Positions 3,160 to 58,218 are shown, counted from the first letter of the stretch. The stretch is DNA of 64,000 bases from Acidobacteriota bacterium (GCA_029776225.1 JAKOTR010000043.1:39195-103194), one strand, 5' to 3'. Notes: generated from the sequence alone by a model not told the origin. A program made the numbers and translations.

Positions 3160-3843
3160 GTGTCAGCGCCGCAAAAAATGGAAACGTTCCGGCGCGTGCC
3201 GCTGTTCGCCGGGCTTACAGAAGAGGAACTGGCGTCTCTTGCCAGACGCGCGGTGGAAAAACGCTACTCCGCCGGCGAGGTGCTCTTCTATGAAGGCGAG
3301 CCGTGCACCGGGTTTTTCCTGATCGGGCAGGGATCGGTCAAGATCTACAAGACCTCGGGTTCCGGGCGCGAGATCATGCTGGCGATCGATACCGCCCCGT
3401 CCAGCGTGGCGGAGGTGCCGCTGTTTGACGGTGGTCCTTATCCGGCCACGGTGAGCGCGGTGAATGACGTGGTCGCCTACGTGGTGAGCAAGCAGGATTT
3501 CCATGCCGTGTGCCTGCAAAATCCCAACCTGCCTCTCAAAGTGCTGGCGGTGGTGGGGCGAAGGCTCAGGCACCTGGTGCGGATCGTGGAAAGCGTGACC
3601 TTCGGCAGCGTCCGCCAGAGGCTCGCGAGCGCGCTGCTGGAATTCGGCAACCAGGCCGGCTCGGACGTGTTCTCCCTCCCCGTTACCCACGAGGAACTCG
3701 CTTTGCGCCTCGGCACGGTGCGCGAAGTGGTCTCCCGAAATCTCAGCCGCTTTCAGGCCGAAGGCCTGCTGCGCGTCCAGCGGCGCGAGATCCATTTGCT
3801 GGACCGAGAGGGATTGCTCCGCGAGGCGGAAACCGAGTTGTAA
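3160..3843 (+). CDS. Crp/Fnr family transcriptional regulator (GTG start; alternative ATG at 3178)
   Basis: cNMP-binding-like N domain (LFAGLTEEELASLA...GEVLFYEGEP) and C-terminal HTH (THEELALRLGTVREVVSRNLSRFQAEGLL). Confidence 0.85.
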   Translation: MSAPQKMETFRRVPLFAGLTEEELASLARRAVEKRYSAGEVLFYEGEPCTGFFLIGQGSVKIYKTSGSGREIMLAIDTAPSSVAEVPLFDGGPYPATVSAVNDVVAYVVSKQDFHAVCLQNPNLPLKVLAVVGRRLRHLVRIVESVTFGSVRQRLASALLEFGNQAGSDVFSLPVTHEELALRLGTVREVVSRNLSRFQAEGLLRVQRREIHLLDREGLLREAETEL

Positions 3844-3916: not shown

Positions 3917-4471
3917 ATGTACACCGTGGAACGACTGCTGCGCGTCTCACGGGGGGAAGAGAGCGCACGCACCACCATCGACTACCCTTTGGAGCATCTC
4001 GTGGCATGTCACCGGCGTATCGAGGAGCGCCTGGAGATGCTGGAACGCGCCGGCGCCCACCTTGCCGGACGCCCCGACGACGCCCTTGAGGCTATCGATG
4101 CCGCTTTTCGCTACTTCGACTCCAGCGGCGTGCTTCACACGGCCGACGAGGAGCAGAGCCTGTTTCCGCGGCTCCGCCCGCGCCTGCTGCCCGACGAGCT
4201 GGAGATGGTCGCCCGGCTCGACCGGGAGCACCGCGAAGCCGAGGCCCTTTACGCCGAGCTCAAGGCCGCCGTGGCGCGCCTTCGAAAAGATCCTCACAAC
4301 GAGCAGCTCGGAGAGGAGTACCGGAATCTTGTGAAGCGGTTCACCGAGCTGTACAACTCGCACATCAGGCTCGAGGACAACGAGCTCGTCCGCGTGGCGA
4401 AGCGAGACCTCACCCGCCAGGAACTGGACGCGATTTCCCGGGAAATGAAGCAGCGGCGGAATTTGTTCTGA
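3917..4471 (+). CDS. Hemerythrin-like (HHE cation-binding) domain protein
   Basis: H/E-rich helical signature (HLVACHRRIEERLE...DREHREAEALY...HIRLEDNEL). Confidence 0.7.
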   Translation: MYTVERLLRVSRGEESARTTIDYPLEHLVACHRRIEERLEMLERAGAHLAGRPDDALEAIDAAFRYFDSSGVLHTADEEQSLFPRLRPRLLPDELEMVARLDREHREAEALYAELKAAVARLRKDPHNEQLGEEYRNLVKRFTELYNSHIRLEDNELVRVAKRDLTRQELDAISREMKQRRNLF

Positions 4472-4959: not shown

Positions 4960-5847
4960 CTACTCGGGCTCGGGGTGGACGATGACGTCGGCGCCGGGCG
5001 CCACACTCTGAATCGCCCGCTCGATGTCCTCGGTCAATGCGTGCGCCGCGCGAAGCGACTGATCGCCGTCAACGAGCACGTGGACATCGACAAACAACCG
5101 GGGGCCGGAATAGCGAAGCCGCACGTTGTGGCAGTCCTTCACCCCTTCCACGGACTGGGCCGCCCCGGTGATCTTCTCCTCCAGGCCGGCCGGCGCGGTG
5201 TCGATCAGCGATGCAATGCTGCGCACCCCGAGCCTCACGCTGATCAGGATCACGATTCCCGCAACGATGATGGCGGCCACGGCGTCCGCCTGGCGCAGCG
5301 CTCCCAAGGCCGGCACCCGCTCCGAAATCAACACGCAGATGAGGCCGAGGATCACCACCGCCGAGCTCCAGATGTCCGTGCTGAAATGCAGCGCGTCAGC
5401 TTCGAGCGCCTGGCTGTTGTACTTGCGGGCCGCCCGGTAGAGCACACGGGAGCGCGAGGCGTCGACGATGATCGAGGTGATCATAACGGCAAACGACCAG
5501 AACGTCACCTCGATTTCGATTCTCTGTTCGATGAGGCGGCCTGCGGCGCCGTAGATAATCCACACGCACGTCGCCAGCAGCAGCATGGTCTCGAACAGGG
5601 CCGAGAGGTTCTCTACTTTTCCGTGGCCGTAGGTGTGCGAGCGGTCGGCGGGCTTACCCGAGATCCGCACCGAAACCCAGGTCATCAGGGCGGCTACAAG
5701 GTCCAGCCCGGAGTGCGCCGCCTCAGCGAGAATTCCAAGGCTGCCTGTGGCGGCGCCCACCAGGGCTTTGAAGGTAGTTAAACCGATGGCCGCCAGCACC
5801 GAACTCGCGGCGGCCCACCGTTTTTCTTTTTCCGCCCGTTCTGTCAA
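4960..5847 (-). CDS. Cation diffusion facilitator (CDF) family transporter; TTG start overlapping the upstream gene's stop
   Basis: CDF signatures (SLGILAEAAHSGLDLVAAL, HTYGHGKVENL). C-terminal cytoplasmic domain. Four-base overlap with the upstream gene implies co-transcription. Confidence 0.8.
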   Translation of the reverse strand: MTERAEKEKRWAAASSVLAAIGLTTFKALVGAATGSLGILAEAAHSGLDLVAALMTWVSVRISGKPADRSHTYGHGKVENLSALFETMLLLATCVWIIYGAAGRLIEQRIEIEVTFWSFAVMITSIIVDASRSRVLYRAARKYNSQALEADALHFSTDIWSSAVVILGLICVLISERVPALGALRQADAVAAIIVAGIVILISVRLGVRSIASLIDTAPAGLEEKITGAAQSVEGVKDCHNVRLRYSGPRLFVDVHVLVDGDQSLRAAHALTEDIERAIQSVAPGADVIVHPEPE

Positions 5848-8171
5848 GTCGAAAGGCCGATTTGGCAGAGGTGTTTCTCAAGCACCGTCTTTTCTTGGGC
5901 GAGATAGGCGCGGTTCCTGCGCGTGAGCTCGTCGAAATCAACCTTGTGAGCGTCGAACTCCGGTCCGTCCACGCAGGCGAACTTAACCTCCCCGCCTACG
6001 GTAACGCGGCAGCCGCCGCACATGCCAGTACCGTCCACCATGATTGGATTCAGGCTGGCAAAAGTAGGCACACCCCATTCGCGGGTGAGTTCGGCCGCAG
6101 CGCGCATCATCGGGATTGGCCCGATGACGTGGACAACACCGGGAGTGATTCCGCTCTGCTCCTTCCACGCGCGCATAAGCTGAACTACATTCCCATGGAA
6201 CGCGCCCGATCCGTCGTCAGTGGCCCAATGGACTTCATCGGCCACGGAGCGCAATTCTTCATCCAGGATAATATGGGCCGTTGACCGCGCTCCGCAGAGC
6301 GCAATCACGCGGTTGCCGGCCTCATGGAACGCCCGCACGACGGGCAGCAGTTCGGCCGTCCCCACACCGCCGGCGACGCAGAGCGCCGTGCCGACTTTTT
6401 CGATGGTGGCGGGAAGGCCCAGCGGGCCGAGCAGGTCCGCGATGTAATCGCCTGCCTCCAGCGACAGCGTCTGCCGCGAGGTTTTTCCGAGCGCCTGAAC
6501 AACGAGCCTGATGGTGCCCGCCGCGGGGTCGCCGTCCACCAGCGTGAGCGGGATGCGCTCGCTCTCGGGAGTGGGCCGCAGAATGATGAACTGCCCGGCC
6601 TTCCAGTGCCTGGCGATTTCGGGCGCCTCGATTTCCAGGCTGGCGATCTCAGGCGTGAGCAGGCGCTTGGAAACTACGCGGTTGCCGCGGCCATTGGTGG
6701 CGGTGGGTATCCCGGAAACGGCAACGCTCTTTGCTTTCGGGCGCAGTTCGCGGTCGATAGCCTCGGCGGCCGCCCGGCCGTCGCGCATCGCCAGGATCAC
6801 GGTAGCCCCGCCGCGCACAACATCCCCTCCGGCGTAGACGTTCGGCAGGCTGGTCCTGCCGGCCTCGTCGATGACAATCTTACCGCGTTTCGTAATCAGT
6901 GTCGGGGTGGCGCGCTGGACGGTGGGGTTCGGGCTCTGGCCGATTGCCATCACCACGGTATCCACCGGCATGCGGTACTCGGAACCGGGTATCGGAACGG
7001 GCCTGGGGCGCCCGGACTCGTCCGGCTCTCCAAGCTGCATGCGCTGGACTTCCATTTCCTTCAACACGCCGTTTTCGTCCCCGAACAGCCGGACGGGCAC
7101 GGCCAGAAACTCGAACTGGACGCCCTCCTCCTCGGCGTGCTCGATCTCTTCGAGGCGGGCGCGCAGCTCGGCCCGGCCGCGGCGGAACATGATGATGCTT
7201 TCACTGCCCAACCGCTTGGCCCAGCGCGCGGCGTCCATCGCGGAATTGCCGCCGCCGATGACCACGGTCCGCTTGCCCACGAGGACCGGCGTGTCACTCG
7301 CCGGGAATTCGTAGGCCTGCATGAGGTTGATCCGGGTCAAATACTCGTTGGCGGTATACACGCCCACCAGGTTCTCTCCCGGAATGCCCATCAGGTGGGG
7401 CAGGCCGGCGCCGGTGCCGATGAACACGGCGGAGTAGCCCCACTCGAAAAGCTCATCGATCGTGGCGGTCTTGCCCACGATGAAGTTGGTGCGGAACTCG
7501 ACTCCAAGCGCGCGAAGCCGCTCGATCTCCTCGTCGATAATCTGGCGCGGCAAGCGAAATGGCGGGATGCCGTAGGCCAGGACGCCGCCCAGCCTGTGCA
7601 GCGCCTCGAAAACCGTGACGCCGTAGCCTTTGCGCACAAGGTCGAAGGCGGCGATCAGCGAGGCGGGTCCGCTGCCGACCAGCGCTACTTTCAGGCCGTT
7701 GGGCGGTTCCACAGGGGGAAGCCGCCGGTCGCTCGAACTCCGCTGATAATCCGCCAGGAAACGTTCGAGCGAGCCGATCGCCACCGGCTCCAGCTTCGTT
7801 TTCGGATTGCCGAGCAGGCAAGCCTTCTCGCAGAACAACTCGTGCTGGCAAACGCGTCCACAGATGCCCGGAAATGGTGTGTACTTGCTGATGGTTTCAA
7901 AAGCGCCACCGAAGTCGCCCTCCACCATGCGGGCGATCACACTCTTGATATCGATGTGGAGCGGGCAGGCTTCCACGCATTTCGGATCCCTGCAATTCAG
8001 GCAGCGGAGCGCTTCGGTCCAAGCCTGCTCCTGGTCGAACCCCAACGCCACTTCTTCACACGTAGTGGTCCGCTTCACCGGATCCAGCAACGGAAGTTGC
8101 TGGCGCGGAATTTTGGGGTTGCGCTTGCGTTTTACCGTTGGCACAGGGGTCACGTCAGCTTTTTCGGGCAT
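5844..8171 (-). CDS. Fused NfnB/GltD-like (N-term) and NfnA/SudB/PyrK-like (C-term) oxidoreductase, single 775-aa polypeptide
   Basis: N-term: Cys clusters (CEEVALGF..CLNCRDPKCVEACP; CGRVCQHELFCEKAC) and two Rossmann folds (VALVGSGPASLIAAFDL; VVIGGGNSAMDAA) as in GltD/NfnB. C-term: FNR-like FAD/NAD module ending in a 2Fe-2S motif (MCGGCRVTVGGEVKFACVDGPEF). Confidence 0.8.
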   Translation of the reverse strand: MPEKADVTPVPTVKRKRNPKIPRQQLPLLDPVKRTTTCEEVALGFDQEQAWTEALRCLNCRDPKCVEACPLHIDIKSVIARMVEGDFGGAFETISKYTPFPGICGRVCQHELFCEKACLLGNPKTKLEPVAIGSLERFLADYQRSSSDRRLPPVEPPNGLKVALVGSGPASLIAAFDLVRKGYGVTVFEALHRLGGVLAYGIPPFRLPRQIIDEEIERLRALGVEFRTNFIVGKTATIDELFEWGYSAVFIGTGAGLPHLMGIPGENLVGVYTANEYLTRINLMQAYEFPASDTPVLVGKRTVVIGGGNSAMDAARWAKRLGSESIIMFRRGRAELRARLEEIEHAEEEGVQFEFLAVPVRLFGDENGVLKEMEVQRMQLGEPDESGRPRPVPIPGSEYRMPVDTVVMAIGQSPNPTVQRATPTLITKRGKIVIDEAGRTSLPNVYAGGDVVRGGATVILAMRDGRAAAEAIDRELRPKAKSVAVSGIPTATNGRGNRVVSKRLLTPEIASLEIEAPEIARHWKAGQFIILRPTPESERIPLTLVDGDPAAGTIRLVVQALGKTSRQTLSLEAGDYIADLLGPLGLPATIEKVGTALCVAGGVGTAELLPVVRAFHEAGNRVIALCGARSTAHIILDEELRSVADEVHWATDDGSGAFHGNVVQLMRAWKEQSGITPGVVHVIGPIPMMRAAAELTREWGVPTFASLNPIMVDGTGMCGGCRVTVGGEVKFACVDGPEFDAHKVDFDELTRRNRAYLAQEKTVLEKHLCQIGLST

Positions 8172-8309: not shown

Positions 8310-9008
8310 TTAGAGTTCCCTCAGTGCCCTGGGGAACAGCACGTTGTTTTCCAGGTGAATGTGCTGGTGAAGGTCCGCTTCCAGTTCCTGCAGTCCCGTG
8401 TAGAGGGCGCGGAAGGTCGCGCAGGCATCGGGCGGAAGCGTATAGTCGCTGGTGATTTTGCGCATCTGTGCAAGCGCTTCCCCGGCGCTGTCGTGCTCAT
8501 GGATCATCATCCGGATCGGATTTTCGATATGGCCGAAGGGCATCGGCTCGGGCGGGCGCCCCTCCTGGCGCGCGCGCTCGGCTGACTCGATGGCGGGGAA
8601 CAGGATGAACTCTTCCTTCCTGAGGTGAGTCAGAAGCTCGTTTTGCAGCCCCTCAAAAACTTCTTGGAGCCTCTTCAGCATCTCCCCGTGCGCCGCACTA
8701 TGAGCCTCGATGACGCGGGCGAGCCTGGCATCGAGCGCGGGCAGTTCCGCTTTCAGATATTCGTGGTGTGTCGAGACGATGTGGTCGGTCAGTTCGCAGA
8801 GCGCGGCTTTGGTCCAGTCCTTCTCCGGCGCGCGGGCGGCAGCCGCCTGCACTTCGGCCAGAACGGCTTCGGGTGAGAGGCCTCGCTCGCGGCAGACTTC
8901 CTCGAGCGGCCGGTTCCCGCCGCAGCAGTAATCGATCTTGTACTTCTCAAAGACCCGCACGGATGCCGGCTGTTCAGCCGCAATCTCCCCAACGGTTTGC
9001 CGATTCAT
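8310..9008 (-). CDS. ric: Iron-sulfur cluster repair di-iron protein (RIC / ScdA / YtfE family)
   Basis: N-terminal DYCCGG motif and hemerythrin-like His/Glu repeats (HHEYLKAELP...HEHDSAGE...HQHIHLENNVLFP). Confidence 0.85.
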   Translation of the reverse strand: MNRQTVGEIAAEQPASVRVFEKYKIDYCCGGNRPLEEVCRERGLSPEAVLAEVQAAAARAPEKDWTKAALCELTDHIVSTHHEYLKAELPALDARLARVIEAHSAAHGEMLKRLQEVFEGLQNELLTHLRKEEFILFPAIESAERARQEGRPPEPMPFGHIENPIRMMIHEHDSAGEALAQMRKITSDYTLPPDACATFRALYTGLQELEADLHQHIHLENNVLFPRALREL

Positions 9009-9058
9009 TTACATTCCACCTCCATCCCCATGCTAGGGCGCAAGGGCCGGCGCGCTCA

Positions 9059-9072
9059 GTGACGGCGGTCAC
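9059..9072. promoter_or_regulatory. Perfect GTGAC-N4-GTCAC dyad, ~57 bp upstream of the ric start
   Basis: Sequence gtgacggcggtcac read directly. Confidence 0.45.
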
Positions 9073-9175
9073 AAGGGCGCAAGGGGGCAGCGTGCTCAGG
9101 GACGGGGTCACAAGGCGCAACGCGCGGCGGGGCGCGGTAACAAGGGTCACAAGGGCGCAAAGGACAGCGGGCGCG

Positions 9176-9189
9176 GTGACGAGTGTCAC
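9176..9189. promoter_or_regulatory. Perfect GTGAC-N4-GTCAC dyad
   Basis: Sequence gtgacgagtgtcac read directly. Confidence 0.45.
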
Positions 9190-9251
9190 AAGACCGCAAG
9201 GGATGGCGGGCTTGCTGAGATGGGGCACAAGGCGCCAAGCATGTCGGCGCG

Positions 9252-9265
9252 GTGACGAGTGTCAC
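9252..9265. promoter_or_regulatory. Perfect GTGAC-N4-GTCAC dyad centred 41.5 bp upstream of the radical SAM ATG (9300)
   Basis: Sequence gtgacgagtgtcac read directly. Spacing to the ATG matches the hemerythrin site, suggesting class-II-like activation and short or absent leaders. Confidence 0.5.
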
Positions 9266-9299
9266 AGAAAAGTCCGGCGTTCGGGATTACCCTCAAAGC

Positions 9300-10379
9300 A
9301 TGAGAGACTTCTCGCAGGCGCCCTTTCTGGTGATCTGGGAGGTGACTCAGGCCTGCGATTTGGCCTGCGTGCACTGCCGCGCCTCGGCCGAACCCCGCCG
9401 GCATCCGCTCGAACTCACCACCGAAGAAGGGTTTCGATTGCTAGATGAAGTCCGGGAGTTCGGCGATCCGCTGGTGGTTTTTACGGGCGGCGACCCGCTG
9501 AAGCGCCCGGACCTGTTCGAACTTCTGAAATACAGCGTGGACCTGGGGTTGCGGACCACCGTGACGCCGAGCGCCACGCCGCTGCTGACCGCCGAAGCCA
9601 TCGAGCGGTTTCGCGACTGCGGCGTTTCGCGCATGGCCGTCAGCGTCGACGGACCGGACGCGGCCACGCACGACGATTTCCGCCGCGTGCCGGGGTCCTT
9701 TGACCGCACCATGTTCGCGCTGGAGCACGCCCGGCGCATCGGGCTTGAAACCCAGGTCAACACCACCGTGACCCGGCTGAACAGGGACACGCTGCCGCGG
9801 ATAGCCAATCTGGTCGCCGCGTCGGGCGCCCGTCTATGGAGTGTCTTTTTCCTGGTTGCGACCGGCCGCGCCCTCCGCACCGATGACCTGGACGCGGACG
9901 CCTACGAGGAAGTCTTTGCCTACCTCTACGAACTGTCGAAGACCGCGCCTTTCGACATCAAGACCACCGAAGCGCAGCATTACCGCCGCTACGTCGCGCA
10001 ACAGAGGAAGCGTGAGGGCGGCGCCGCAGGTTCTCCCAAGGCGCCGGCCGGCCCCATCCAGCGCCAGGCGGGCATCAACGACGGCAAGGGGTTTGTCTTC
10101 ATTTCCCACACGGGGGAGATCTATCCCAGCGGCTTTCTGCCCGTGTCAGGGGGAAACGTCCGGCAGGATTCGCTGGTTGAGGTCTACCGGACGTCCCCGC
10201 TGTTTGTGGCGTTACGGAACCCGGACCGGCTGCGGGGCAAGTGCAGAATCTGCGAATACAGGAACTTGTGCGGGGGATCGCGGTCGCGGGCTTACGCGCT
10301 GACGGGGGACTGGCTGGCGGAGGACCCCAAGTGCGCGTACGAGCCGCGCGACAGGCATGTTGCACTTGTTAACAGTTAG
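9300..10379 (+). CDS. Radical SAM / SPASM-domain protein (AhbD/NirJ/PqqE-like architecture), function unknown
   Basis: CDLACVHC (CX3CX2C) after VIWEVTQA. GGDPL SAM-binding motif. C-terminal Cys-rich SPASM region (CRICEYRNLCGGSRSRAYALTG...CAYEP). Start placed at ATG 9300 (the ORF's 9252 start lies inside the dyad site). Confidence 0.8.
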   Translation: MRDFSQAPFLVIWEVTQACDLACVHCRASAEPRRHPLELTTEEGFRLLDEVREFGDPLVVFTGGDPLKRPDLFELLKYSVDLGLRTTVTPSATPLLTAEAIERFRDCGVSRMAVSVDGPDAATHDDFRRVPGSFDRTMFALEHARRIGLETQVNTTVTRLNRDTLPRIANLVAASGARLWSVFFLVATGRALRTDDLDADAYEEVFAYLYELSKTAPFDIKTTEAQHYRRYVAQQRKREGGAAGSPKAPAGPIQRQAGINDGKGFVFISHTGEIYPSGFLPVSGGNVRQDSLVEVYRTSPLFVALRNPDRLRGKCRICEYRNLCGGSRSRAYALTGDWLAEDPKCAYEPRDRHVALVNS

Positions 10380-10614
10380 GATTGTTGCGCTTTGCGACTT
10401 TTGACCCATGGGTGAGGTATTTTGCCCCACTCATTGCGGAGAATCGCACCCGTTCCTCCGAATCCTCATTTGAGGCTCCTCTGCATCCCCATTGAAAAAT
10501 AAAAAGATTCCATACTTTCCGATCTGTATTAAGATGCATGAATGTTGGAGGTACGCCTGCTCGGAATCGCAGCGCACTATTGTGAGTTGGCTAGGTTATC
10601 TGGAGGATGCGTTT

Positions 10615-12657
10615 ATGCGCTCACGGTTTTCTTTTTCGATCGCGGTCAAACTCGTGCTTGTCCTCGCCTTCCTGGCGGGTTCCGCAATTCTGTTAAGTAG
10701 TTCCGATAAGCCCGCGTTCACCGCGATGGACAAGGCGTTCTACGCCGACGCCAATGCTATCAACTTCGTCCGGCCGGGCCTGGACATCAAAATCGAGTCG
10801 GCCAGCATTGAAGCCGACGGCACGATCAAGGCCCGGATCAAGGTGACGGACCCCAAGGGCCTGCCGCTGGACCTCGATGGGGTTACGACGCCGGGAACCA
10901 TTTCGACGCGTTTCGTGATCGGTGTCATTCCGAATGGGCAGAAGCAGTACATCTCCTACATCACCCGGCAGGTGACCAGCACGATCACGAATCAGACCGC
11001 CACCCAGGCCACTTACGATTCCGGCGGCACATTCACCAAAGAGGCCGACGGGGTCTACACATACACCTTCGGGGCGAAAGCGCCGGCCAATTTTGACCGC
11101 AGCGCGACGCACAGCATCGGCGTATGGGCGGCCCGCGACCTGAGCGAGTTCGATCTGGATGCCGTTGCGAATTACGACTCCGACGTGTTCCACTTCGTTC
11201 CCAACGGCAGCCCGGTGACGGTGACGCGCGACGTAATCCGCACCCAGAGCTGCAACAAGTGCCACGATCCGCTGTCGGCGCACGACGAACGGCAGGGCAT
11301 TGAACTGTGCAATATCTGCCACAACCCCCAGAGCAGCGATCCCGACACCGGCAACACAATCGACATGGTTGTGATGACCCACAAGATCCACATGGGCAAG
11401 GATCTGCCGAGTGTGAAGGCGGGCGGCAAGTATCAGCTCATTGGCTACCGCAACACGGTGTACGACTATTCCACTGTGGGCTTCCCGGCCGATGCCCGGC
11501 GCTGCACCTTCTGCCACGAGCAGAACACTGGCGCGGCGCAGGCTACCGCTTATCTGAAGCCGAGCCGCGTGGCCTGCGGCTCCTGCCACGACAACGTGAA
11601 CTTCGCCACGGGCGAGAACCACGTGAACCTTCCGCAGCTCAGCGATAACCTGTGCGCGAATTGCCACATCCCGCAGGGCGAGCTGGACTTCGACGCCTCG
11701 GTTATCGGCGCGCACACGATTCCGGAGTTCTCGAACGAGCTGCCCGGCACGGTCTTTGAGATCGTCGACGTTCGCGACGGCGAGGCGGGCAAGAATCCGA
11801 CCGTAACCTTTACGGTGAAGGATAAGGCCGGCAACCCGGTCACGGACATTTCCGGGATGCGCCTATCGCTCGTTCTGGCCGGGCCGACGACGGACTACTC
11901 CAGCTACGTTTCGGAGACCGCCAACGGCGCGCAGGGCTCGGGCGGAACCTATACCTACACCTTCAAGCAGGCGATCCCGGCTGATGCCAAGGGCACCTTC
12001 GCGGTGGGCATCGAAGGATACCGCACTGTAACCCTGCTCGAGGGGACCACGCGGCAGATGAGCGTTCGCGATGCCGGCATGAACAAGGTGTATTACTTCT
12101 CCGTGGACGGCTCGCCGGTCACTCCGCGCCGGCAGGTGGTGAGCCTGGAGAAGTGCAACTCCTGCCATGCGTCGCTCTCCGCGCACGGCGGCAATCGCAA
12201 CACGATCGAACAGTGCGTGCTTTGCCACAACCCGCTTAAGACCGACGCCGCCGCCCGGCCCGCCGAAGAGAAGCCGGACATGACCATCCAGATGGCCTAC
12301 ATGATCCACCGGATCCACACCGGCGAGGACAGCCCGTCCGAAATCGTGATCTACGGGCACAACAGCACCCGTTACGACTTCGGCCACGTCCGGTATCCGG
12401 GTGACAGGCGCAATTGCAACGCTTGCCACGTCAACGGTTCCGAACAGCTTCCGCTTTCGGAAAGCCTCCTGAACGTCAACAACCCGCGGGGGGTGTTGAA
12501 CCCGATGGGACCGGCTACGGCGGCCTGCACCGGTTGCCACACCAGCATAGCGGCGGCTTCGCACGCTTTGTCGAACACGACCCAGCTTGGGGAAGCCTGC
12601 GCCGCGTGCCACAAGACCGGCAACGAATTCAGCGTGCCGAAGGTACACGCACGTTAG
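10615..12657 (+). CDS. Decahaem c-type cytochrome, OmcA/MtrC-like (outer-membrane/extracellular type)
   Basis: 10 CXXCH motifs arranged 5 + (~150-aa haem-free beta-rich domain) + 5. Signal peptide MRSRFSFSIAVKLVLVLAFLAGSA. GGAGGA RBS 7 nt upstream of ATG 10615. The ORF-track 10492 start is a TTG extension into AT-rich promoter DNA. Confidence 0.75.
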   Translation: MRSRFSFSIAVKLVLVLAFLAGSAILLSSSDKPAFTAMDKAFYADANAINFVRPGLDIKIESASIEADGTIKARIKVTDPKGLPLDLDGVTTPGTISTRFVIGVIPNGQKQYISYITRQVTSTITNQTATQATYDSGGTFTKEADGVYTYTFGAKAPANFDRSATHSIGVWAARDLSEFDLDAVANYDSDVFHFVPNGSPVTVTRDVIRTQSCNKCHDPLSAHDERQGIELCNICHNPQSSDPDTGNTIDMVVMTHKIHMGKDLPSVKAGGKYQLIGYRNTVYDYSTVGFPADARRCTFCHEQNTGAAQATAYLKPSRVACGSCHDNVNFATGENHVNLPQLSDNLCANCHIPQGELDFDASVIGAHTIPEFSNELPGTVFEIVDVRDGEAGKNPTVTFTVKDKAGNPVTDISGMRLSLVLAGPTTDYSSYVSETANGAQGSGGTYTYTFKQAIPADAKGTFAVGIEGYRTVTLLEGTTRQMSVRDAGMNKVYYFSVDGSPVTPRRQVVSLEKCNSCHASLSAHGGNRNTIEQCVLCHNPLKTDAAARPAEEKPDMTIQMAYMIHRIHTGEDSPSEIVIYGHNSTRYDFGHVRYPGDRRNCNACHVNGSEQLPLSESLLNVNNPRGVLNPMGPATAACTGCHTSIAAASHALSNTTQLGEACAACHKTGNEFSVPKVHAR

Positions 12658-12762
12658 TTGATCCGGGTATAACTAGTAAACGTGCGCACACAACCTATGA
12701 AGCACACGGTCTTGCCGCCGTGGCTGTCGAACGCAAACCGCATTCCTCCTCCTCCTCCTCCA

Positions 12763-13737
12763 ATGCCGATCGGGAGGCCCTGGGCGGGCCTCCCGTGTGC
12801 GTTCGCAGCCATGGCGGCTCTTGTACTTTTTTCCGTTTCCCTCGCGGCCCAGCAGGACCAGGAGAGCGAGCAGACTCAGCAGGCCCAACAGACCCAGCAA
12901 CAGTTGCCTCCGGGCTACGCAGGTTCAGACGTCTGTCTGGGGTGTCACGACGACCTTGGAAAAGCGTTCACCAGAAATCCGCACCACCTTGTCGAGACGG
13001 GCAAGGCCAAGACCAAGACGAACTGGCAGGGCATGGCTTGCGAGTCCTGCCACGGGCCGGGCGCCAAGCACGCGGAAACCGTCTCGCCGTCCGACATCAT
13101 CAACCCGGCTAAGCAGACCGCGGCGAAGGCGAGCCAGAGTTGCCTGGCGTGCCATCTGAATAATCCCATCCACGCCGGGTGGGCCCGCAGCAGCCACAAC
13201 AAGAACCAGACTCCCTGTACCTCCTGCCATGCGATTCACAAGGGCCAGGAGGCGCTGCGTCCGGCGAGGTTCATGGAGATCAACAAGCTCTGCGCGAGTT
13301 GCCACACCTCGGTCTGGGCCCAGTTCGCCAAACCTTACAAGCACCGGCTGGACGTAGGGGCGATGTCGTGCACGGATTGTCACAATCCTCACGGGACGTT
13401 TCTGCCGGGCTCCGTCCGGACGGTGGCCGCCAACGAGCGTGCGTGCTACAAGTGCCACCCGGACAAGACCGGCCCGTTCCCGTTCCCGCATGCTCCGGTG
13501 CAACTGGAGGGCTGCGGGACGTGCCATGAGCCGCACGGCTCAGCGAACCCGCGGATGCTGACGCGCTCCGAGGTGCGGTTCGTGTGCCTGGAGTGCCACT
13601 CGAATATCACCGCGGGTAAAACGATTGGCGGGGTGCCGCCGGCATTTCACGATATCAGGAGCCCGCGTTTCCAAAACTGCACCATATGCCACACCAAGAT
13701 TCACGGTTCCTATGTGGATCCGGGGCTGGAGCGATAG
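12763..13737 (+). CDS. Periplasmic decahaem c-type cytochrome, MtrA/DmsE/PioA-like (start uncertain: 12697, 12763 or 12811)
   Basis: 10 closely spaced CXXCH motifs in ~300 aa. Signal peptide. Low-complexity Q-rich linker after the signal. Confidence 0.75.
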   Translation: MPIGRPWAGLPCAFAAMAALVLFSVSLAAQQDQESEQTQQAQQTQQQLPPGYAGSDVCLGCHDDLGKAFTRNPHHLVETGKAKTKTNWQGMACESCHGPGAKHAETVSPSDIINPAKQTAAKASQSCLACHLNNPIHAGWARSSHNKNQTPCTSCHAIHKGQEALRPARFMEINKLCASCHTSVWAQFAKPYKHRLDVGAMSCTDCHNPHGTFLPGSVRTVAANERACYKCHPDKTGPFPFPHAPVQLEGCGTCHEPHGSANPRMLTRSEVRFVCLECHSNITAGKTIGGVPPAFHDIRSPRFQNCTICHTKIHGSYVDPGLER

Positions 13738-13739
13738 CG

Positions 13740-15743
13740 ATGAGAGCACTTCTGATTATCCTGATCGCGCTTCCGCTTGCGGCCCAGGCGCCGGTCGGTT
13801 CGCAGGCGCCCGTACCGCCGCCGCCGAAGGACGCCATTCCTCTGGTGCAGCAGCCGGACCTCACCGCTCCGCCCGACGAGCCTTTCCTCACCGGCAACCT
13901 GGATGTCGGCTACCGCTGGGTCAGTGGCGTGGGCGGCGACTTCAACACCTATCGCAGCGTCGTGAACCTCGGCGACGGACCCAGGCTGTTCAACCTCGAC
14001 GCGGTCATCGTGCCGCCGGCGTGGAAGTTTGCCGACCGGATCCAGGTGAACGCGAACAACTGGGGCGGGGATCCGTATAACTTCGCCCGGGTGAGCGCGC
14101 GCAAGCTGGGTGTCTACGACTTCTACTGGAACTACCGCAACATCGCGTACTTCAATTTCCTGCCGTCGTTCGCCAATCCGAACCTGGAGCGCGGCATTTT
14201 TCTCAACCAGCGGGGCTTCGACACCTTCAAGCGGATCAACGACGCCGAGCTGGTGCTGAGGCCGGGGCGGAGCATCACTCCGTACGTCGCCTACAGCCGC
14301 AGCGGCGACCGCGGCACGGGCACCACGAACATTGTTCTGGAAAGCAACGAATACACCGTGCCGGACCGGATCGATAACAACGTCAATATCTACCGCGCCG
14401 GCAGCAGGTTCCAGTTCAACCGGTACAACCTGACGCTGGAAGCCGGCGGGATCTCCTACGACAACGACCAGCGCGTTGAGATCGGAGATACGCCGAATTT
14501 CGGCAACCGCACGACTCCCTTCTTGGGGCAGACTCTGTTTCTGACGCAGGGTTTGCAGAGCTACAACGTCAGCGGCAGCGGCGTCTTCACGCGGGGGATG
14601 TTTGCCGCGAACCCGGTGAATTGGGCCGATGTGTTCGGGCAATTCGAGTTCAGCCAACTGAAGAGCACGACCCGCTTCAGCGAGAACGCCGCCGGGAACC
14701 TGGTGAACCTGGCGGCGGTATCGTTCTTCAACGAACTGATCCGGACGGCGGACTCGCGCGTCAAGCAGCCGCACCCGTCGGGCCAGATCGGGGCCGAATT
14801 GCGGCCCACGCGATGGCTGCGCATCCTGGAGTTCGCCTCCACCAACCGCCTGCACAACGCCGGTACAGAACTGCTGATTGACCGCATGCTGTTTGCGGGC
14901 CTTCCGCCGACGGAAGAGGTCGTGAACCTGGCCGAGCGGCTGGAAGTGACCTACAACCAGCAGCAGGTGAACTTCCTGTTCGACGTCACGCCGAGGCTCA
15001 TGCTTCGAGCCGGGCACCGGTACGTCTGGGGAGAAGCGGAGGCGCCCGCCGCCCTTATCCTGGGGGGCGTGGGAACGGAATCGGCCAAACTGCGCAGGAA
15101 CGTGGCGCTGGCCGGAGCCACCTGGCGCAGCCCGCGCAAGCTGCGCGTCACGGTGGAGTACGAAGGCTCGCCGGGCGACCGTTCGTTCTTCCGCACCAGT
15201 GTGAACGAGTACCAGAAGGGGCGCGTGATGGCGCGCTATCAGGCGCTGCCCTCGCTGGCGCTAACCTTCAATTTCGGAATCTTCGACAACCACAACCCGG
15301 CGCCGAGCCAGTACGATTTCCAGAGCCGGGACGCCTCGCTTTCCGCCTACTGGGCGCCCCAGGGAGGCAAGCGGGTGAGTTTCATTGCCGAATACGCGCG
15401 GGCAACCGTGAGCTCGGATATCAGTTTCGTGGTGCCGAACACGCTTCAGGAGGCGCTCTCGGTTTATCGGGAACGTTCGCACACGGGACTGCTGCTTGCG
15501 GAATTCCCGCTTCCGGGGCGCGGGGTGTTCCAGCCCAGGCTGGATGTCGGGGGATCGCTGTTCTATTCGACGGGCACGCGTCCCTCGCGGTACTACCAGC
15601 CGTTCGGCAGGTTCCGCCTGCCCCTCGGCGAGCACGTCGCCTGGTACGGCGAGTGGCGGTGGTACGGCTTCACCCAGCCGACGTTCCTGTTTGAGGGATT
15701 CCGCTCCAACCAGGTGATCACCGGCCTGCGGTTCTTCATGTAG
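13740..15743 (+). CDS. Putative outer-membrane beta-barrel porin, MtrB/PioB-like (~667 aa)
   Basis: Signal peptide MRALLIILIALPLAAQA. No Cys. Rich in Y/F/N/G/S/T/R with aromatic C-terminus (GLRFFM). Sits directly downstream of two decahaem genes in mtrC-A-B order. Confidence 0.55.
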   Translation: MRALLIILIALPLAAQAPVGSQAPVPPPPKDAIPLVQQPDLTAPPDEPFLTGNLDVGYRWVSGVGGDFNTYRSVVNLGDGPRLFNLDAVIVPPAWKFADRIQVNANNWGGDPYNFARVSARKLGVYDFYWNYRNIAYFNFLPSFANPNLERGIFLNQRGFDTFKRINDAELVLRPGRSITPYVAYSRSGDRGTGTTNIVLESNEYTVPDRIDNNVNIYRAGSRFQFNRYNLTLEAGGISYDNDQRVEIGDTPNFGNRTTPFLGQTLFLTQGLQSYNVSGSGVFTRGMFAANPVNWADVFGQFEFSQLKSTTRFSENAAGNLVNLAAVSFFNELIRTADSRVKQPHPSGQIGAELRPTRWLRILEFASTNRLHNAGTELLIDRMLFAGLPPTEEVVNLAERLEVTYNQQQVNFLFDVTPRLMLRAGHRYVWGEAEAPAALILGGVGTESAKLRRNVALAGATWRSPRKLRVTVEYEGSPGDRSFFRTSVNEYQKGRVMARYQALPSLALTFNFGIFDNHNPAPSQYDFQSRDASLSAYWAPQGGKRVSFIAEYARATVSSDISFVVPNTLQEALSVYRERSHTGLLLAEFPLPGRGVFQPRLDVGGSLFYSTGTRPSRYYQPFGRFRLPLGEHVAWYGEWRWYGFTQPTFLFEGFRSNQVITGLRFFM

Positions 15744-15806
15744 GGTGGGGGACCGCCGGCCGGGGCGGCGTTGGGCAGACGCCTCAACTCTGCCAAAATA
15801 AGGAAT

Positions 15807-16880
15807 ATGCGAGCGAAGTTGGCGCTCCTGGTGTTCGTGGCGTCGCTGTTGTGCCCCGCGCAAAACAAGCTGACCGTAGAGCAAGTCGTCAAATTTATCC
15901 GGTCCGCCATCGAGCTGAAACAATCCGACAGAGAGGTCGCCGACTACCTTCGCAGACAGGCGATGCGCGAGCGCCTGGACGACCGCACTATAGAAGAGCT
16001 CGAAGGTCTGGGAGCCGGTCCCAGAACGGTGGAGGCGCTGCGGCGGCTGCGCGACGCTTCGAAAAATTTGCCCGCTCCGGAGACCCCGCCGGCGCAGGAG
16101 GCGCCCGCTCCGGCGCCGATGCCGCCGCCCAGCCCGGAAGAGCAGCGCAGAGTCATCGAGCAGGCGCGCGATTACGCGCTCAGCTACACAAAGAACCTGC
16201 CGAACTTTATCTGCACGCAGGTTACGCGCCGCTACTTCGATCCGAGCGGGCTGGAATTCTGGAAACAGCACGACGTGCTGACCGCGCGGCTCAGCTTCTT
16301 CGAGCAGAAGGAAGACTACAAGCTGGTGATGGTGAACAACCGCGCCATCACCACCGAAGTCCCTTACCTTTCGGTGGGCGGCGCTATTTCCACCGGCGAG
16401 TTCGGCACCATGATGAAGGAGCTGTTCGAGCCGGAAACCCAGGCGGACTTCCGCTGGGAGCGCTGGGGCAAACTGCGCGGGCGCATCGCACACGTGTTCT
16501 CCTACCGCGTGGCGCAAGAGCGCTCGAAGTGGCACGTCTCTTACGAGAACTCAAATGAAATCGTGCCCGGCTATCACGGCTTGGTCTATGTCGATCGTGA
16601 CACCAACATGGTGCTGCGGATCACGCTGGTAGCGGATCTCCCGCCGACGTATCCGCTCCAGGAAGTCAGCGACACGCTGGATTACGACCTCGCCCCCATC
16701 GGCACGCAAGAGTATATGCTGCCGTTGAAAGCGGTCGTGCGCACGAGGCAGGGAAGACTGCTCGCCAGGAACGACGTTGAGTTCCGCATGTACCGCCGGT
16801 TCACCGCCGAGGCTGAAATCAAGTTCGAAACTCCCGACCCGCTTCCCGAGGAGAAAACAACCGAGCAGCCGCCGCAATAG
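15807..16880 (+). CDS. Hypothetical secreted protein with Pro/Ala-rich linker (no family recognised)
   Basis: Signal peptide MRAKLALLVFVASLLCPAQ. AAGGA RBS. Follows the mtrB-like gene with a 64-bp gap. Confidence 0.5.
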   Translation: MRAKLALLVFVASLLCPAQNKLTVEQVVKFIRSAIELKQSDREVADYLRRQAMRERLDDRTIEELEGLGAGPRTVEALRRLRDASKNLPAPETPPAQEAPAPAPMPPPSPEEQRRVIEQARDYALSYTKNLPNFICTQVTRRYFDPSGLEFWKQHDVLTARLSFFEQKEDYKLVMVNNRAITTEVPYLSVGGAISTGEFGTMMKELFEPETQADFRWERWGKLRGRIAHVFSYRVAQERSKWHVSYENSNEIVPGYHGLVYVDRDTNMVLRITLVADLPPTYPLQEVSDTLDYDLAPIGTQEYMLPLKAVVRTRQGRLLARNDVEFRMYRRFTAEAEIKFETPDPLPEEKTTEQPPQ

Positions 16881-16897
16881 TTTGCGAATTTGCCGGC

Positions 16898-18571
<1,674 letters not shown>

Positions 18572-55449: not shown

Positions 55450-58218
55450 GTGCGAAGTCCGGGATCGCATAGACTGCTGGCCGGCGGCGCCCTTGTGCTG
55501 CTCATCAACACCGCGTACGTGTGGGCGTTCGCCTCGCCGACGATCTTCTACATGGGGAATGTGCTGTTGCACGTCGTGCTGGGAACGGCGGTTGTGGCGG
55601 GCTTTCTCGTGTTGTGGCGCCAGCGCGTCCCCACGCTTGCCGCCGCGGCGCTCATCGTCTCCCTTGCGCTCGGCCTTTTTCTCACCTGGGCCGGCGCGAC
55701 CACGCCGAACCGCTGGGCCTTGTGGGCGCACATCCTCGCTGCCGCGCTGGCGCTTGGCGCTCTCGGCCGTTTCGTGGCGAAGCACGCCACGCGGGGCTAT
55801 GCGCGCGCGTTCCGGCTCTGCCTGGTTCTGTTTGTCGCGCTGCCGCTTTCGGCGCGGCTTTACGAAAAATTTTTTCCCGATCCGGCTCACCGCATCGTGA
55901 ACTCGCGCCCCGCGCCCACGAGCATGGAAGGCGAAGGGGGCGGCCCGGATTCGCCGTTTTTCCCGTCCTCGGCCCGGACCAACACCGGCGGGTTCATCCC
56001 CGCCAGCTTCTTTCTGGATTCGGAGACCTGCGGCGAGTGCCACAAGGACATCTACGAGCAGTGGCGGAGCTCAATGCACCACTTCGCCAGCTTCAATAAC
56101 CAGTTCTACCGGAAGTCCATCGAGTACATGCAGGAGGTGGTGGGCACGCGTCCGAGCCGGTGGTGCGCCGGATGCCACGATCACGCGATGCTCTTCAGCG
56201 GCCGGTTCGACCAGCCTGCGGTGGAACAGATCGACACGCCCGAGGCGCAGGCTGGCCTGGGCTGCGTCTCCTGCCACGCCATAACGCACGTCGACAGCAC
56301 CATGGGCAACGGCGGATTCACGATCAGCTATCCGCCGCTTCACGAGCTGGCAAGCAGCCGCAACAAGTATCTTCGCGCGCTCGACCGCTTCCTTACTTAT
56401 CTCGATCCGGAACCCCACCGCCGCACGTTTATGAAGCCCTTCATGCGCGAGCAGCCCGCCGAGTTCTGCTCCGCTTGCCACAAGGTGCACCTGGACGTTC
56501 CAGTGAACAGTTATCGCTGGATCCGCGGATTCAACGATTACGACAACTGGCAGGCCAGCGGCGTCTCGGGCCAGGGCGCGCGCTCTTTCTATTACCCGGC
56601 AACACCCATGCACTGCTCCACATGCCACATGCCGCTTGTGCCGTCACGCGATCCGGGCAATGTGAACGGCATGGTCCACTCGCATCGCTTTGCGGCGGCG
56701 AACACGGCAGTGCCGCACGTCAACCGGGACGCCGAGCAGTTGCGCGCGGTCGAAGAGTTTTTGAAATCCGGCTTCATCACGGTGGATATTTTCGCCGCGG
56801 CGCCGGCGGAAGAAGCGCCACCCGCGCCTATGTGGCGGCGGCGCGGCGAAACACCGCAACTGAGTTCCACCTTCGCGGTGGGCGAGGAAGCCGAGCAGAC
56901 CGGGCACGTATTCCTTCGCGATCCCGGCCAGGTGGCAGCGCCGCTGGACCGCGCGGACCTCGTGCTTCGTCCGGGCGCGACCGTGCGCCTCGATGTGGTG
57001 GTGCGCACCCGCGCCATCGGTCACTTTTTCCCGGCCGGCACAGTGGATGCGTTCGACGTCTGGCTCGAACTGAAAGGGGAGGACGCCGAGGGCCGCGTCA
57101 TTTTCTGGAGCGGCGCGGTCGAGGACGGCGGCCGCGGCCCGGTGGAGCGCGGCGCGCACTTCTACCGCTCGTTCCTGTTGGATGGCGAGGGCAATCCGAT
57201 CAACAAGCGCAACGCCTGGATGGCGCGCAGCACTCTCTACGTGCGTTTGATCCCGCCCGGCGCTGCCGATTGCGTGCACTACCGGGTGAAAATTCCCGAC
57301 AACGCGCGCGGGCCCATTCACTTCACCGCGAAGCTCAACTATCGCAAGTTCTCGCACTACTACACCGAGTTCGCCTACGCCGGCAAGCCCGGAGCGGGAA
57401 GCGTCGCAGCGGACCACGATAACCGCGAATTCACCTTCCATCCGGCCGCGATCCCAAAGAACGTTTCCGGGGATGTCCGGGGCGAGATTCCGAATTTGCC
57501 CATCGTCACTCTCGCCCGCGCCGAGGCCGTGCTGCGGGTCGGGGATCGCATGACTGAAACGTCGTGGCGGCCCGTGGTGCGCAAAGAGGACCGCGAGCGG
57601 TGGAACGACTGGGGCATCGGCCTGCTGCTTCAGGGCGATCTGAAGGGCGCCGGCTTCGCTTTCAAAAAAGTCACCGAGGCCGAACCGGAATACGCCGACG
57701 GCTGGCTGAACGTCGCACGCGCGCTCATACAGGAAGGCGAAACGGAAGCGGCCAAGCCCTATATAGGGCGCGCCCTCGCCATCGATTCCACGCTCCCCCG
57801 CATACACTTCTTTAAGGCCATGATCGAGAAGGCCGAGGGCGACTACGACGCCGCAATCGCCTCGTTGCGCCGGGTTGAGAAAAGTTTTCCGCGCGACCGC
57901 GTGGTGTTGAACCAGTTGGGACGCCTGCTGTTCCTGAAGCGGCAGTACGCCGAAGCCGTCGCGGTGTTCGAAAGGACGCTGAGCGTGGACCCCGAAGACC
58001 TCCAGGCGCACTACAACCTCATGCTCTGCTACCGCGGGCTCGGCGATATCGAGCGCGCCCGCCGCGCCGAAGCGCTCTTCAAGCGGTTCAAGGCCGACGA
58101 AGACGCGCAGGAGATCACCGCGAAACCGCGCATGCTCAGCCCCGAAGACAACAACGAGCGGCAGATCATTCACGAGCACGTCAGCATTCCGCTCAGAGAA
58201 ATTGGAGGCGGGCTGTGA
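55450..58218 (+). CDS. Membrane-anchored pentahaem c-type cytochrome with C-terminal TPR repeats (GTG start)
   Basis: 4 N-terminal TM helices. 5 CXXCH motifs. TPR-like C-terminus (AEPEYADGWLNVARALIQEGE...). Confidence 0.75.
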   Translation: MRSPGSHRLLAGGALVLLINTAYVWAFASPTIFYMGNVLLHVVLGTAVVAGFLVLWRQRVPTLAAAALIVSLALGLFLTWAGATTPNRWALWAHILAAALALGALGRFVAKHATRGYARAFRLCLVLFVALPLSARLYEKFFPDPAHRIVNSRPAPTSMEGEGGGPDSPFFPSSARTNTGGFIPASFFLDSETCGECHKDIYEQWRSSMHHFASFNNQFYRKSIEYMQEVVGTRPSRWCAGCHDHAMLFSGRFDQPAVEQIDTPEAQAGLGCVSCHAITHVDSTMGNGGFTISYPPLHELASSRNKYLRALDRFLTYLDPEPHRRTFMKPFMREQPAEFCSACHKVHLDVPVNSYRWIRGFNDYDNWQASGVSGQGARSFYYPATPMHCSTCHMPLVPSRDPGNVNGMVHSHRFAAANTAVPHVNRDAEQLRAVEEFLKSGFITVDIFAAAPAEEAPPAPMWRRRGETPQLSSTFAVGEEAEQTGHVFLRDPGQVAAPLDRADLVLRPGATVRLDVVVRTRAIGHFFPAGTVDAFDVWLELKGEDAEGRVIFWSGAVEDGGRGPVERGAHFYRSFLLDGEGNPINKRNAWMARSTLYVRLIPPGAADCVHYRVKIPDNARGPIHFTAKLNYRKFSHYYTEFAYAGKPGAGSVAADHDNREFTFHPAAIPKNVSGDVRGEIPNLPIVTLARAEAVLRVGDRMTETSWRPVVRKEDRERWNDWGIGLLLQGDLKGAGFAFKKVTEAEPEYADGWLNVARALIQEGETEAAKPYIGRALAIDSTLPRIHFFKAMIEKAEGDYDAAIASLRRVEKSFPRDRVVLNQLGRLLFLKRQYAEAVAVFERTLSVDPEDLQAHYNLMLCYRGLGDIERARRAEALFKRFKADEDAQEITAKPRMLSPEDNNERQIIHEHVSIPLREIGGGL

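Follow-up and report, generated by a model that had tools for sequence, protein, structure and literature searches.

A predicted MtrCAB-type porin-cytochrome gene cluster in a member of the Acidobacteriota

A stretch of 64,000 nucleotides (nt) from an Acidobacteriota bacterium (GCA_029776225.1, JAKOTR010000043.1:39195-103194), referred to below as the window, carries four consecutive open reading frames (ORFs) on the + strand between positions 10615 and 16880. The first three are designated here mtrC, mtrA and mtrB and are predicted to encode the outer-surface cytochrome, the periplasmic cytochrome and the outer-membrane barrel of an Mtr-like conduit for extracellular electron transfer. The original prediction for this DNA had announced three co-oriented genes followed by a fourth, arranged in the mtrC-mtrA-mtrB order rather than as in PioAB or MtoAB. 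All four ORFs were found where it had placed them, and a full OmcA/MtrC gene indeed precedes mtrA, unlike in PioAB and MtoAB.

Gene layout and the two decahaem cytochromes

The three genes mtrC (10615-12657), mtrA (12697-13737) and mtrB (13740-15743) are followed by a neighbour gene at 15807-16880, and the third-position guanine-plus-cytosine (GC) content of the four ORFs is high, as in real genes of this 63% GC window. A gap of 39 nt separates mtrC from mtrA, mtrB begins 2 nt past the mtrA stop codon, and a leader of 235 nt lies ahead of mtrC, the ATG of which is preceded at a distance of 8 nt by a GGAGG sequence. Because of these two short gaps, the leader and a direct repeat conserved upstream of the genes throughout the clade, mtrC-mtrA-mtrB most likely constitute a single operon. 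A scan of positions 9000-17200 detected no terminator-like site on the + strand inside the cluster. The same scan detected no sigma-70-like promoter, and its terminator-like sites were not commoner than in shuffled sequences, making it uninformative on co-transcription.

The product of mtrC, of 680 amino acids (aa), is predicted to be an outer-surface decahaem c-type cytochrome. Its ten CXXCH motifs are located at residues 213, 232, 297, 321 and 347 and at residues 514, 534, 601, 638 and 662, that is, in two groups of five spanning residues 213-351 and 514-666, in agreement with the secreted 5 + 5 decahaem of about 680 aa that had been announced. The four-domain layout proposed at the same time is supported as well, except that the single haem-free domain then described is in fact one of two, residues 1-212 (a domain of about 180 aa) and residues 352-513 (about 160 aa), which fits this layout even better. 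The protein is thus predicted to consist of a signal peptide without lipobox, a haem-free domain I, a pentahaem domain II, a haem-free domain III and a pentahaem domain IV. All of its 20 Cys residues lie inside CXXCH motifs, and 14 His residues are present besides those of the motifs. The OmcA/MtrC model TIGR03507 scores 535.4 bits, well above its curated cut-off of 209.3, and is aligned from position 4 to position 672 of 672, whereas PF22113, which describes domains II and IV of MtrC and MtrF, is matched twice. The closest solved relatives are MtrF (3PMQ, E-value (E) 2e-36), followed by OmcA, UndA and MtrC. By its sequence, MtrC is therefore assigned to the OmcA/MtrC decahaem family and does not group with multihaem cytochromes outside the Mtr type.

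The second gene encodes the periplasmic decahaem MtrA. Its ORF opens at 12682, and the likeliest start is the ATG at 12697 (346 aa), preferred because the resulting N-terminus, MKHTVLPPWL, is common to the relatives; the ATG at 12764 (324 aa) is the alternative. Ten CXXCH motifs are packed between residues 85 and 337, i.e., within about 250 residues, and the mature part contains 12 additional His. Taken together, MtrC and MtrA carry 10 + 10 CXXCH motifs, with extra His sufficient for bis-His ligation. The MtrA/DmsE model TIGR03508, whose cut-off is 192.2, scores 250.3 bits and is covered from position 1 to position 257 of 258, and MtrA is aligned over 305 residues (40-344) with 6R2Q_A, the MtrA of the solved Mtr complex (E 8e-39). 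The Geobacter GSU2203-type model NF041028 scores 200.1 bits, below its cut-off of 325. On sequence grounds, MtrA thus belongs to the MtrA/DmsE decahaem family, as the original prediction had supposed. A Gln-rich low-complexity insert, QQDQESEQTQQAQQTQQQ, is located at 12850-12900 (MtrA residues about 57-76), just past the predicted signal-peptide cleavage site; it is absent from a related locus of 93% identity (L010, see below) and from other relatives.

The barrel protein and the case for a conduit

The product of mtrB is a protein of 667 aa devoid of Cys, with the signal peptide MRALLIILIALPLAAQA and a composition rich in G, F, N, R and Y. The features on which it had been put forward as a barrel candidate are thus present, apart from the aromatic terminus: the sequence ends with ...GLRFFM, in which the final residue is Met, preceded by two Phe. 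PF11854 attains 24.1 bits for a gathering score of 23, on residues 451-512 only. Among 56 homologues of the barrel, PF11854 is matched by 24 (best 5.8e-9) and TIGR03509, the MtrB/PioB model, by 14 (best 3.3e-6), and no competing family was matched by any of them.

Because sequence alone cannot tie the barrel to the solved MtrB, a fold search was needed. The AlphaFold2 model calculated on the alignment of homologues has a predicted local distance difference test (pLDDT) score of 82.3 and a predicted template modelling (pTM) score of 0.73, and represents an all-beta protein of 26 strands without plug domain. MtrB itself possesses 26 strands. In a Foldseek comparison of the model with the PDB, the top match is 6R2Q_B, i.e., MtrB (E 9e-12, template modelling (TM) scores 0.63/0.64), at about 12% identity in the structural alignment, and the runners-up are TonB-dependent and SusC barrels with TM scores of 0.3-0.47. 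The Pfam and TIGR matches of the homologues, the model and the Foldseek result are three independent lines suggesting that the third protein is an MtrB-type barrel. The structure prediction thus yielded the barrel that had been expected, and neither a different fold nor an unrelated family was encountered.

The same three genes are found together in numerous related genomes. A total of 481 barrel homologues were scored, of which the few named ones belong to Acidobacteriota or Bryobacteraceae, some being called MtrB/PioB by NCBI. In the GTDB contigs, taken as one genome per species, 512 stretches encode a relative of the barrel, and the locus comparison covers the best 79 of these 512. Almost all of the 79 loci come from metagenome-assembled genomes of Bryobacterales, Bryobacteraceae, Solibacteraceae or Terriglobia, which agrees with the earlier guess of an Acidobacteriota-like genome. 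In 70 of these loci no contig end interrupts the cluster, and all 70 show the order mtrC-mtrA-mtrB on one strand. The barrel sequence of the window is also found, identical, on contigs in 61 blocks of a public assembly collection. The closest relative in the genome collection is L010 (JBLNCW010000086.1), which has a barrel 93% identical, full synteny, and rpoD and dnaG at 96% and 93%, respectively. It is labelled 'Rhodospirillales bacterium MAG115', whereas the other relatives are Acidobacteriota, and this label probably reflects an error of taxonomy or of binning.

Recent horizontal acquisition was considered as an origin of the cluster and set aside. The cluster looks resident because its GC content (0.60-0.63) is not deviant, lying inside the range of the window (0.60-0.66), and because many relatives show conserved synteny for upstream genes (NfnAB-like, RIC and CDF).

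Family membership of MtrC and MtrA, the MtrB-like fold and the C-A-B synteny across Bryobacterales are established. That positions 10615-15743 encode an MtrCAB-type porin-cytochrome complex is given a probability of about 0.82, and family scores, the barrel model and synteny all support the Mtr-like interpretation initially proposed. The threaded architecture of such a complex, the exposure of MtrC at the cell surface and the flow of electrons through it would follow by analogy with the structure and biochemistry of the Shewanella system.

The observations that weigh against this interpretation concern the barrel, the outer cytochrome, the surroundings of the cluster and the transfer of function from Shewanella. 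TIGR03509, proposed at the outset as a check of the third protein, does not match the MtrB of the window itself, PF11854 being just reached and TIGR03509 being matched only by homologues as detailed above. Moreover, a profile of the 56 homologues retrieves nothing from the PDB sequences even at E = 1. The proposed homology to MtrB would consequently draw on the fold, the marginal Pfam scores and the gene context. The same three facts (no TIGR03509 match, a borderline Pfam score and no PDB sequence reached by the family profile) would suit a third gene coding for an unrelated large porin or transporter, with cytochromes acting without a barrel and a merely coincidental synteny. Such a coincidence is very improbable, considering that only 2 nt separate the gene from mtrA, that it comes after mtrA in every related locus, that the 26-strand plugless model matches MtrB far better than it does 22-strand transporters, and that the homologues match only MtrB/PioB models. 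The barrel also lacks the N-terminal CXXC motif, the protein having no Cys at all; this motif is reportedly restricted to the MtrB proteins of metal-reducing Gammaproteobacteria. According to PMC12175506, which cites Wee et al. 2014, C42 of the CXXC is required in S. oneidensis.

As for MtrC, no Cys is present within the N-terminal 45 residues, as had been remarked beforehand, and a lipobox is therefore missing. This is a trait of the clade, in which the lipobox pattern is matched in just 2 of 67 MtrC members and a conserved ...GSAxLLSSS / ...LVSAP site resembles a signal peptidase I site. From these sequences, MtrC is predicted to be cleaved by signal peptidase I and then probably retained through the barrel only, with partial release as another possibility. 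The CX8C disulphide of domain III, conserved in Shewanella-clade MtrC, is likewise absent, given that all Cys belong to CXXCH motifs. The lack of lipobox, CX8C and barrel CXXC departs from the Shewanella-type sub-definitions but not from the family definitions.

The 64-kb window further contains no NapC/CymA-type quinol dehydrogenase, extending to its whole length the earlier remark that none is adjacent to the cluster, and no small periplasmic multihaem shuttle; type II secretion genes and ccm genes are missing from it as well. The tetrahaem cytochrome that accompanies mtrB in many relatives (see below) was not found in the window by tblastn. Finally, both the function and the direction attributed to the acidobacterial members are extrapolated from Shewanella.

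A different destination of the electrons has also to be weighed. As TIGR03508 is named for DmsE, MtrA-type wires serve DmsEF-like systems, and the conduit of the window could lead to a specific extracellular or periplasm-facing terminal reductase instead of acting as a general mineral or humic reductase. This possibility is hardly credible: there are no genes for a molybdopterin or other terminal reductase beside the cluster of the window, none occur among the ORFs examined just downstream of mtrB in related loci, and the position of terminal component is filled by the OmcA/MtrC-family cytochrome.

Accessory cytochromes, upstream motif and neighbouring genes

Two types of accessory cytochromes are encoded near the mtr genes of relatives. 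A tetrahaem cytochrome of about 368 aa, made up of four class-I cytochrome c domains, occurs in 38 of the 79 related loci, usually directly after mtrB (e.g., L049:9965-11098), whereas a membrane-anchored pentahaem cytochrome of 450-480 aa, the N-terminal region of which is of NapC/NirT type, is encoded within 8 kb in 15 of the 79, both counts being lower bounds as many loci end at contig ends. The pentahaem protein matches PF03264 with 34.5 bits vs 24.1. It is encoded at L049:11100-12527 and L071:10016-11374, with homologues in L026, L030, L046, L061, L067 and L072 and further ones in L076, L077, L078 and L081, and its sequence makes it a candidate quinol dehydrogenase. The published statement that no quinol dehydrogenase lies beside acidobacterial clusters is thus true of the window but not of the whole clade. 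In the sub-clade of the window, neither the tetrahaem nor the pentahaem is present, and a gene with a LolA-like fold occupies the position of the tetrahaem.

This last gene is the fourth of the co-oriented series (15807-16880, in an ORF opening at 15771). It encodes a secreted protein of 357 aa, for which the model (pLDDT 83) predicts a helical domain at the N-terminus, then a Pro/Ala linker and, at the C-terminus, an open beta-barrel of LolA/RseB-like appearance. No family was matched in library scans of the product, and the nearest folds, MucB/RseB, DUF1329, LolA/LolB and LprG, are weak matches (E 2e-5 to 1e-3). Homologues number more than 2,245 at about 60% identity, and the three examined for context all lie among unrelated genes; adjacency of the gene to mtrB is confined to L005 and L010, the two closest relatives. 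The secreted Pro/Ala-linker protein of the original prediction thus exists but is not a conserved part of the Mtr system, and the gene is probably a neighbour rather than a component of the conduit. The idea that it could be a haem-less relative of the tetrahaem, suggested by its identical position and similar length, was rejected, since phmmer retrieves only its own orthologues up to E 10.

Upstream of mtrC, the motif TTTCACCCA is present on the + strand as two direct copies at 10400-10429, about 200 nt ahead of the mtrC start: TTTGACCCA at 10400-10408 and TTTGCCCCA at 10421-10429, about 21 bp apart. Among 65 non-redundant related loci (range L005-L082), 34 carry TTTCACCCA at a distance of 135-260 nt ahead of mtrC; it is invariably found on the coding strand, and two copies in direct orientation, spaced by 21-22 bp, are frequent. 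The 8-mer TTCACCCA occurs 87 times in about 1.2 Mb of loci, 38 of these occurrences falling within 330 nt upstream of mtrC. Judged by its sequence and position, the TTTCACCCA direct repeat looks like a clade-specific regulatory site and is a candidate for the operator, or for a promoter element, of the mtr operon in acidobacteria. As the conserved element, a classical FNR box was tried and discarded: of 69 upstream regions, 7 contain TTGA-N6-TCAA with at most one mismatch, and that of the window is not among them. Rfam gave no match for the whole window or for the conserved mtrC leader, and the latter corresponds to no known RNA family.

A Crp/Fnr-family regulator is encoded at 3160-3843 (+). 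In at least 17 related loci, its orthologues, 59-83% identical, lie close to the mtr genes, and in several relatives the gene directly follows the pair formed by mtrB and the tetrahaem gene. This regulator is a possible controller of the mtr cluster; no FNR-type box was found ahead of mtrC. Three more genes of the window are syntenic with mtrC in many relatives, namely those for a hemerythrin at 3917-4471 (+), for a fused GltD-like/FNR-like (NfnAB-like) oxidoreductase of 775 aa at 5844-8171 (-) and for an RIC/YtfE Fe-S repair di-iron protein at 8310-9008 (-). The neighbourhood has a flavour of oxygen, nitric oxide (NO) and redox stress, and the presence of the Crp/Fnr regulator, hemerythrin and RIC near the cluster fits a low-oxygen or NO-responsive control.

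Directly upstream of mtrC, at 9252-10379 (+), lies a gene for a radical SAM/SPASM protein of family TIGR04053 (475 bits vs a cut-off of 395). The protein resembles the haem b synthase AhbD, below the cut-off of that model, and the gene adjoins mtrC also in L005, L010 and L014. A tie to the haem supply of a 20-haem cluster is possible.

No second OmcA/MtrC-type gene and no omcA or mtrDEF paralogue is present in the 64-kb window. Its sole other multihaem protein is an unrelated one of 922 aa encoded at 55450-58218 (+), with N-terminal transmembrane helices, five CXXCH motifs in a c554-like region and C-terminal TPR repeats; an FG-GAP/ASPIC-UnbV gene follows at 58215-59876 (+). The 922-aa protein bears a weak similarity to a pentahaem of 362 aa adjoining the mtr cluster in L006 and L008 (24%, E 2e-8). 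It was considered as the missing quinol dehydrogenase and set aside, as it has c554-like and TPR domains and no similarity to the NapC-like pentahaem of the relatives.

Relation to known systems and direction of electron flow

The best-studied counterpart is the MtrCAB complex of Shewanella, solved for S. baltica (6R2Q). Both systems comprise the same three components in the order mtrC-mtrA-mtrB, with ten haems per cytochrome, a four-domain MtrC and a 26-strand barrel, the latter being modelled in the present case. The locus of the window differs by its low sequence identity, an MtrC without lipobox or CX8C, an MtrB without CXXC, the lack of nearby omcA, mtrDEF and cymA, and its acidobacterial host. 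With MtoAB and PioAB it shares an MtrA-family decahaem beside an MtrB/PioB-family barrel without CXXC, but these systems are restricted to A and B, with no MtrC gene, whereas a full OmcA/MtrC cytochrome gene precedes mtrA in the window. The Geobacter Pcc complexes of GSU2203 type similarly combine a barrel with one multihaem in the periplasm and another on the outer side; however, the GSU2203 model is not reached here, and the outer cytochrome of the window is of the OmcA/MtrC family and not of the Geobacter Omc family.

Among acidobacteria, an earlier survey reported only partial mtr homologues in cultured strains (PMC5900883). Baker et al. 2022 then described as 'Group 5' an MtrCAB of Acidobacteriia/Bryobacterales with a single mtrC, no CymA nearby and, immediately downstream of mtrB in 5 of 5 genomes, a periplasmic tetrahaem named 'c-cyt group 5' (PMC8805035). 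More recently, a preprint by Fiorito et al. 2026 reported an Mtr-like 'EET2' conduit of Bryobacterales transcribed in peat (bioRxiv 10.64898/2026.05.27.727921). The window cluster corresponds to Group 5 MtrCAB, and thereby to 'EET2', a form common in Bryobacterales and already published. It shares with Group 5 the host lineage, the gene order, the single mtrC and the lack of a quinone oxidoreductase beside the cluster. It differs by the absence of the downstream tetrahaem, the next gene having no CXXCH motif and coding for the protein of LolA-like fold instead. In the larger sample of 79 loci, this tetrahaem is present in only 38, and a NapC/NirT-like pentahaem is encoded nearby in 15. Because Group 5 and 'EET2' already describe acidobacterial MtrCAB, the cluster is regarded as a new member of a published group.

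In an MtrCAB-type complex, the 26-strand MtrB barrel would form a sheath in the outer membrane, into which MtrA would be threaded as an insulated chain of bis-His haems leading from the periplasm to the cell surface. MtrC would dock on the outer face of the barrel and spread electrons over its two pentahaem domains towards insoluble or macromolecular partners, for example Fe(III) or Mn(IV) oxides, electrodes, and organic matter in humic or particulate form. The periplasmic and inner-membrane donors would be encoded elsewhere in the genome. By analogy, electrons would likeliest flow outward, for the respiration of extracellular acceptors under low oxygen; this direction is favoured because of the full MtrC, the NapC-type genes of some relatives and the neighbourhood containing Crp/Fnr, hemerythrin and RIC genes.

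The same complex could also be run inwards, in the manner proposed for MtoAB and PioAB, so that electrons would enter the periplasm, their source being Fe(II), reduced humics, minerals or partner cells. In vitro, Mtr conduits work both ways, so the direction is not decidable from sequence. Class-I cytochromes c typically take part in high-potential chains, and the class-I tetrahaem adjoining mtrB in many relatives would be in keeping with electron uptake, as would a barrel without N-terminal CXXC and the lack of an adjacent CymA-type quinol dehydrogenase. In addition, one MtrC of iron-oxidising Gallionellales clusters with the acidobacterial MtrCs (Baker et al., PMC8805035). Electron uptake is nevertheless judged unlikely, though deserving serious attention. 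Indeed, PioAB and classical MtoAB have no MtrC, whereas a full one is present here; the NapC/NirT-type pentahaem of 15 of the 79 relatives belongs to a class that feeds electrons outwards in Shewanella; and the 2026 preprint takes the expression seen in deep, anoxic peat to mean that extracellular acceptors are respired.

A more specific proposal can be formulated, namely that Bryobacterales possess an Mtr variant combining an outer cytochrome that is not lipid-anchored, a CXXC-free barrel and a modular periplasmic or inner-membrane feed. The feed may be the class-I tetrahaem and/or the NapC-like pentahaem in some lineages and be encoded elsewhere in the case of the window, and the whole unit may be controlled via the clade-specific TTTCACCCA direct-repeat operator. 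Taken jointly, these elements form a tentative proposal, conceivable but somewhat doubtful as a whole.

The capacity for extracellular electron transfer has already been inferred from genomes of this group, and the window represents one more example. The comparison of loci adds the clade-wide occurrence of a non-lipoprotein MtrC, the finding that only about one sampled relative in two has the tetrahaem and that some have a NapC-type gene next to the cluster, and a conserved upstream motif that gives a starting point for the study of regulation. Soils and peat harbour Bryobacterales in abundance. If working, an Mtr conduit would let them respire Fe or Mn oxides or humics without oxygen, or take up electrons, and would thereby bear on carbon turnover in anoxic soils. 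If the variant described above were confirmed, acidobacteria of soil, peat and wastewater would respire minerals or organic matter of humic or particulate kind by means of a wiring and a regulation unlike those of Shewanella.

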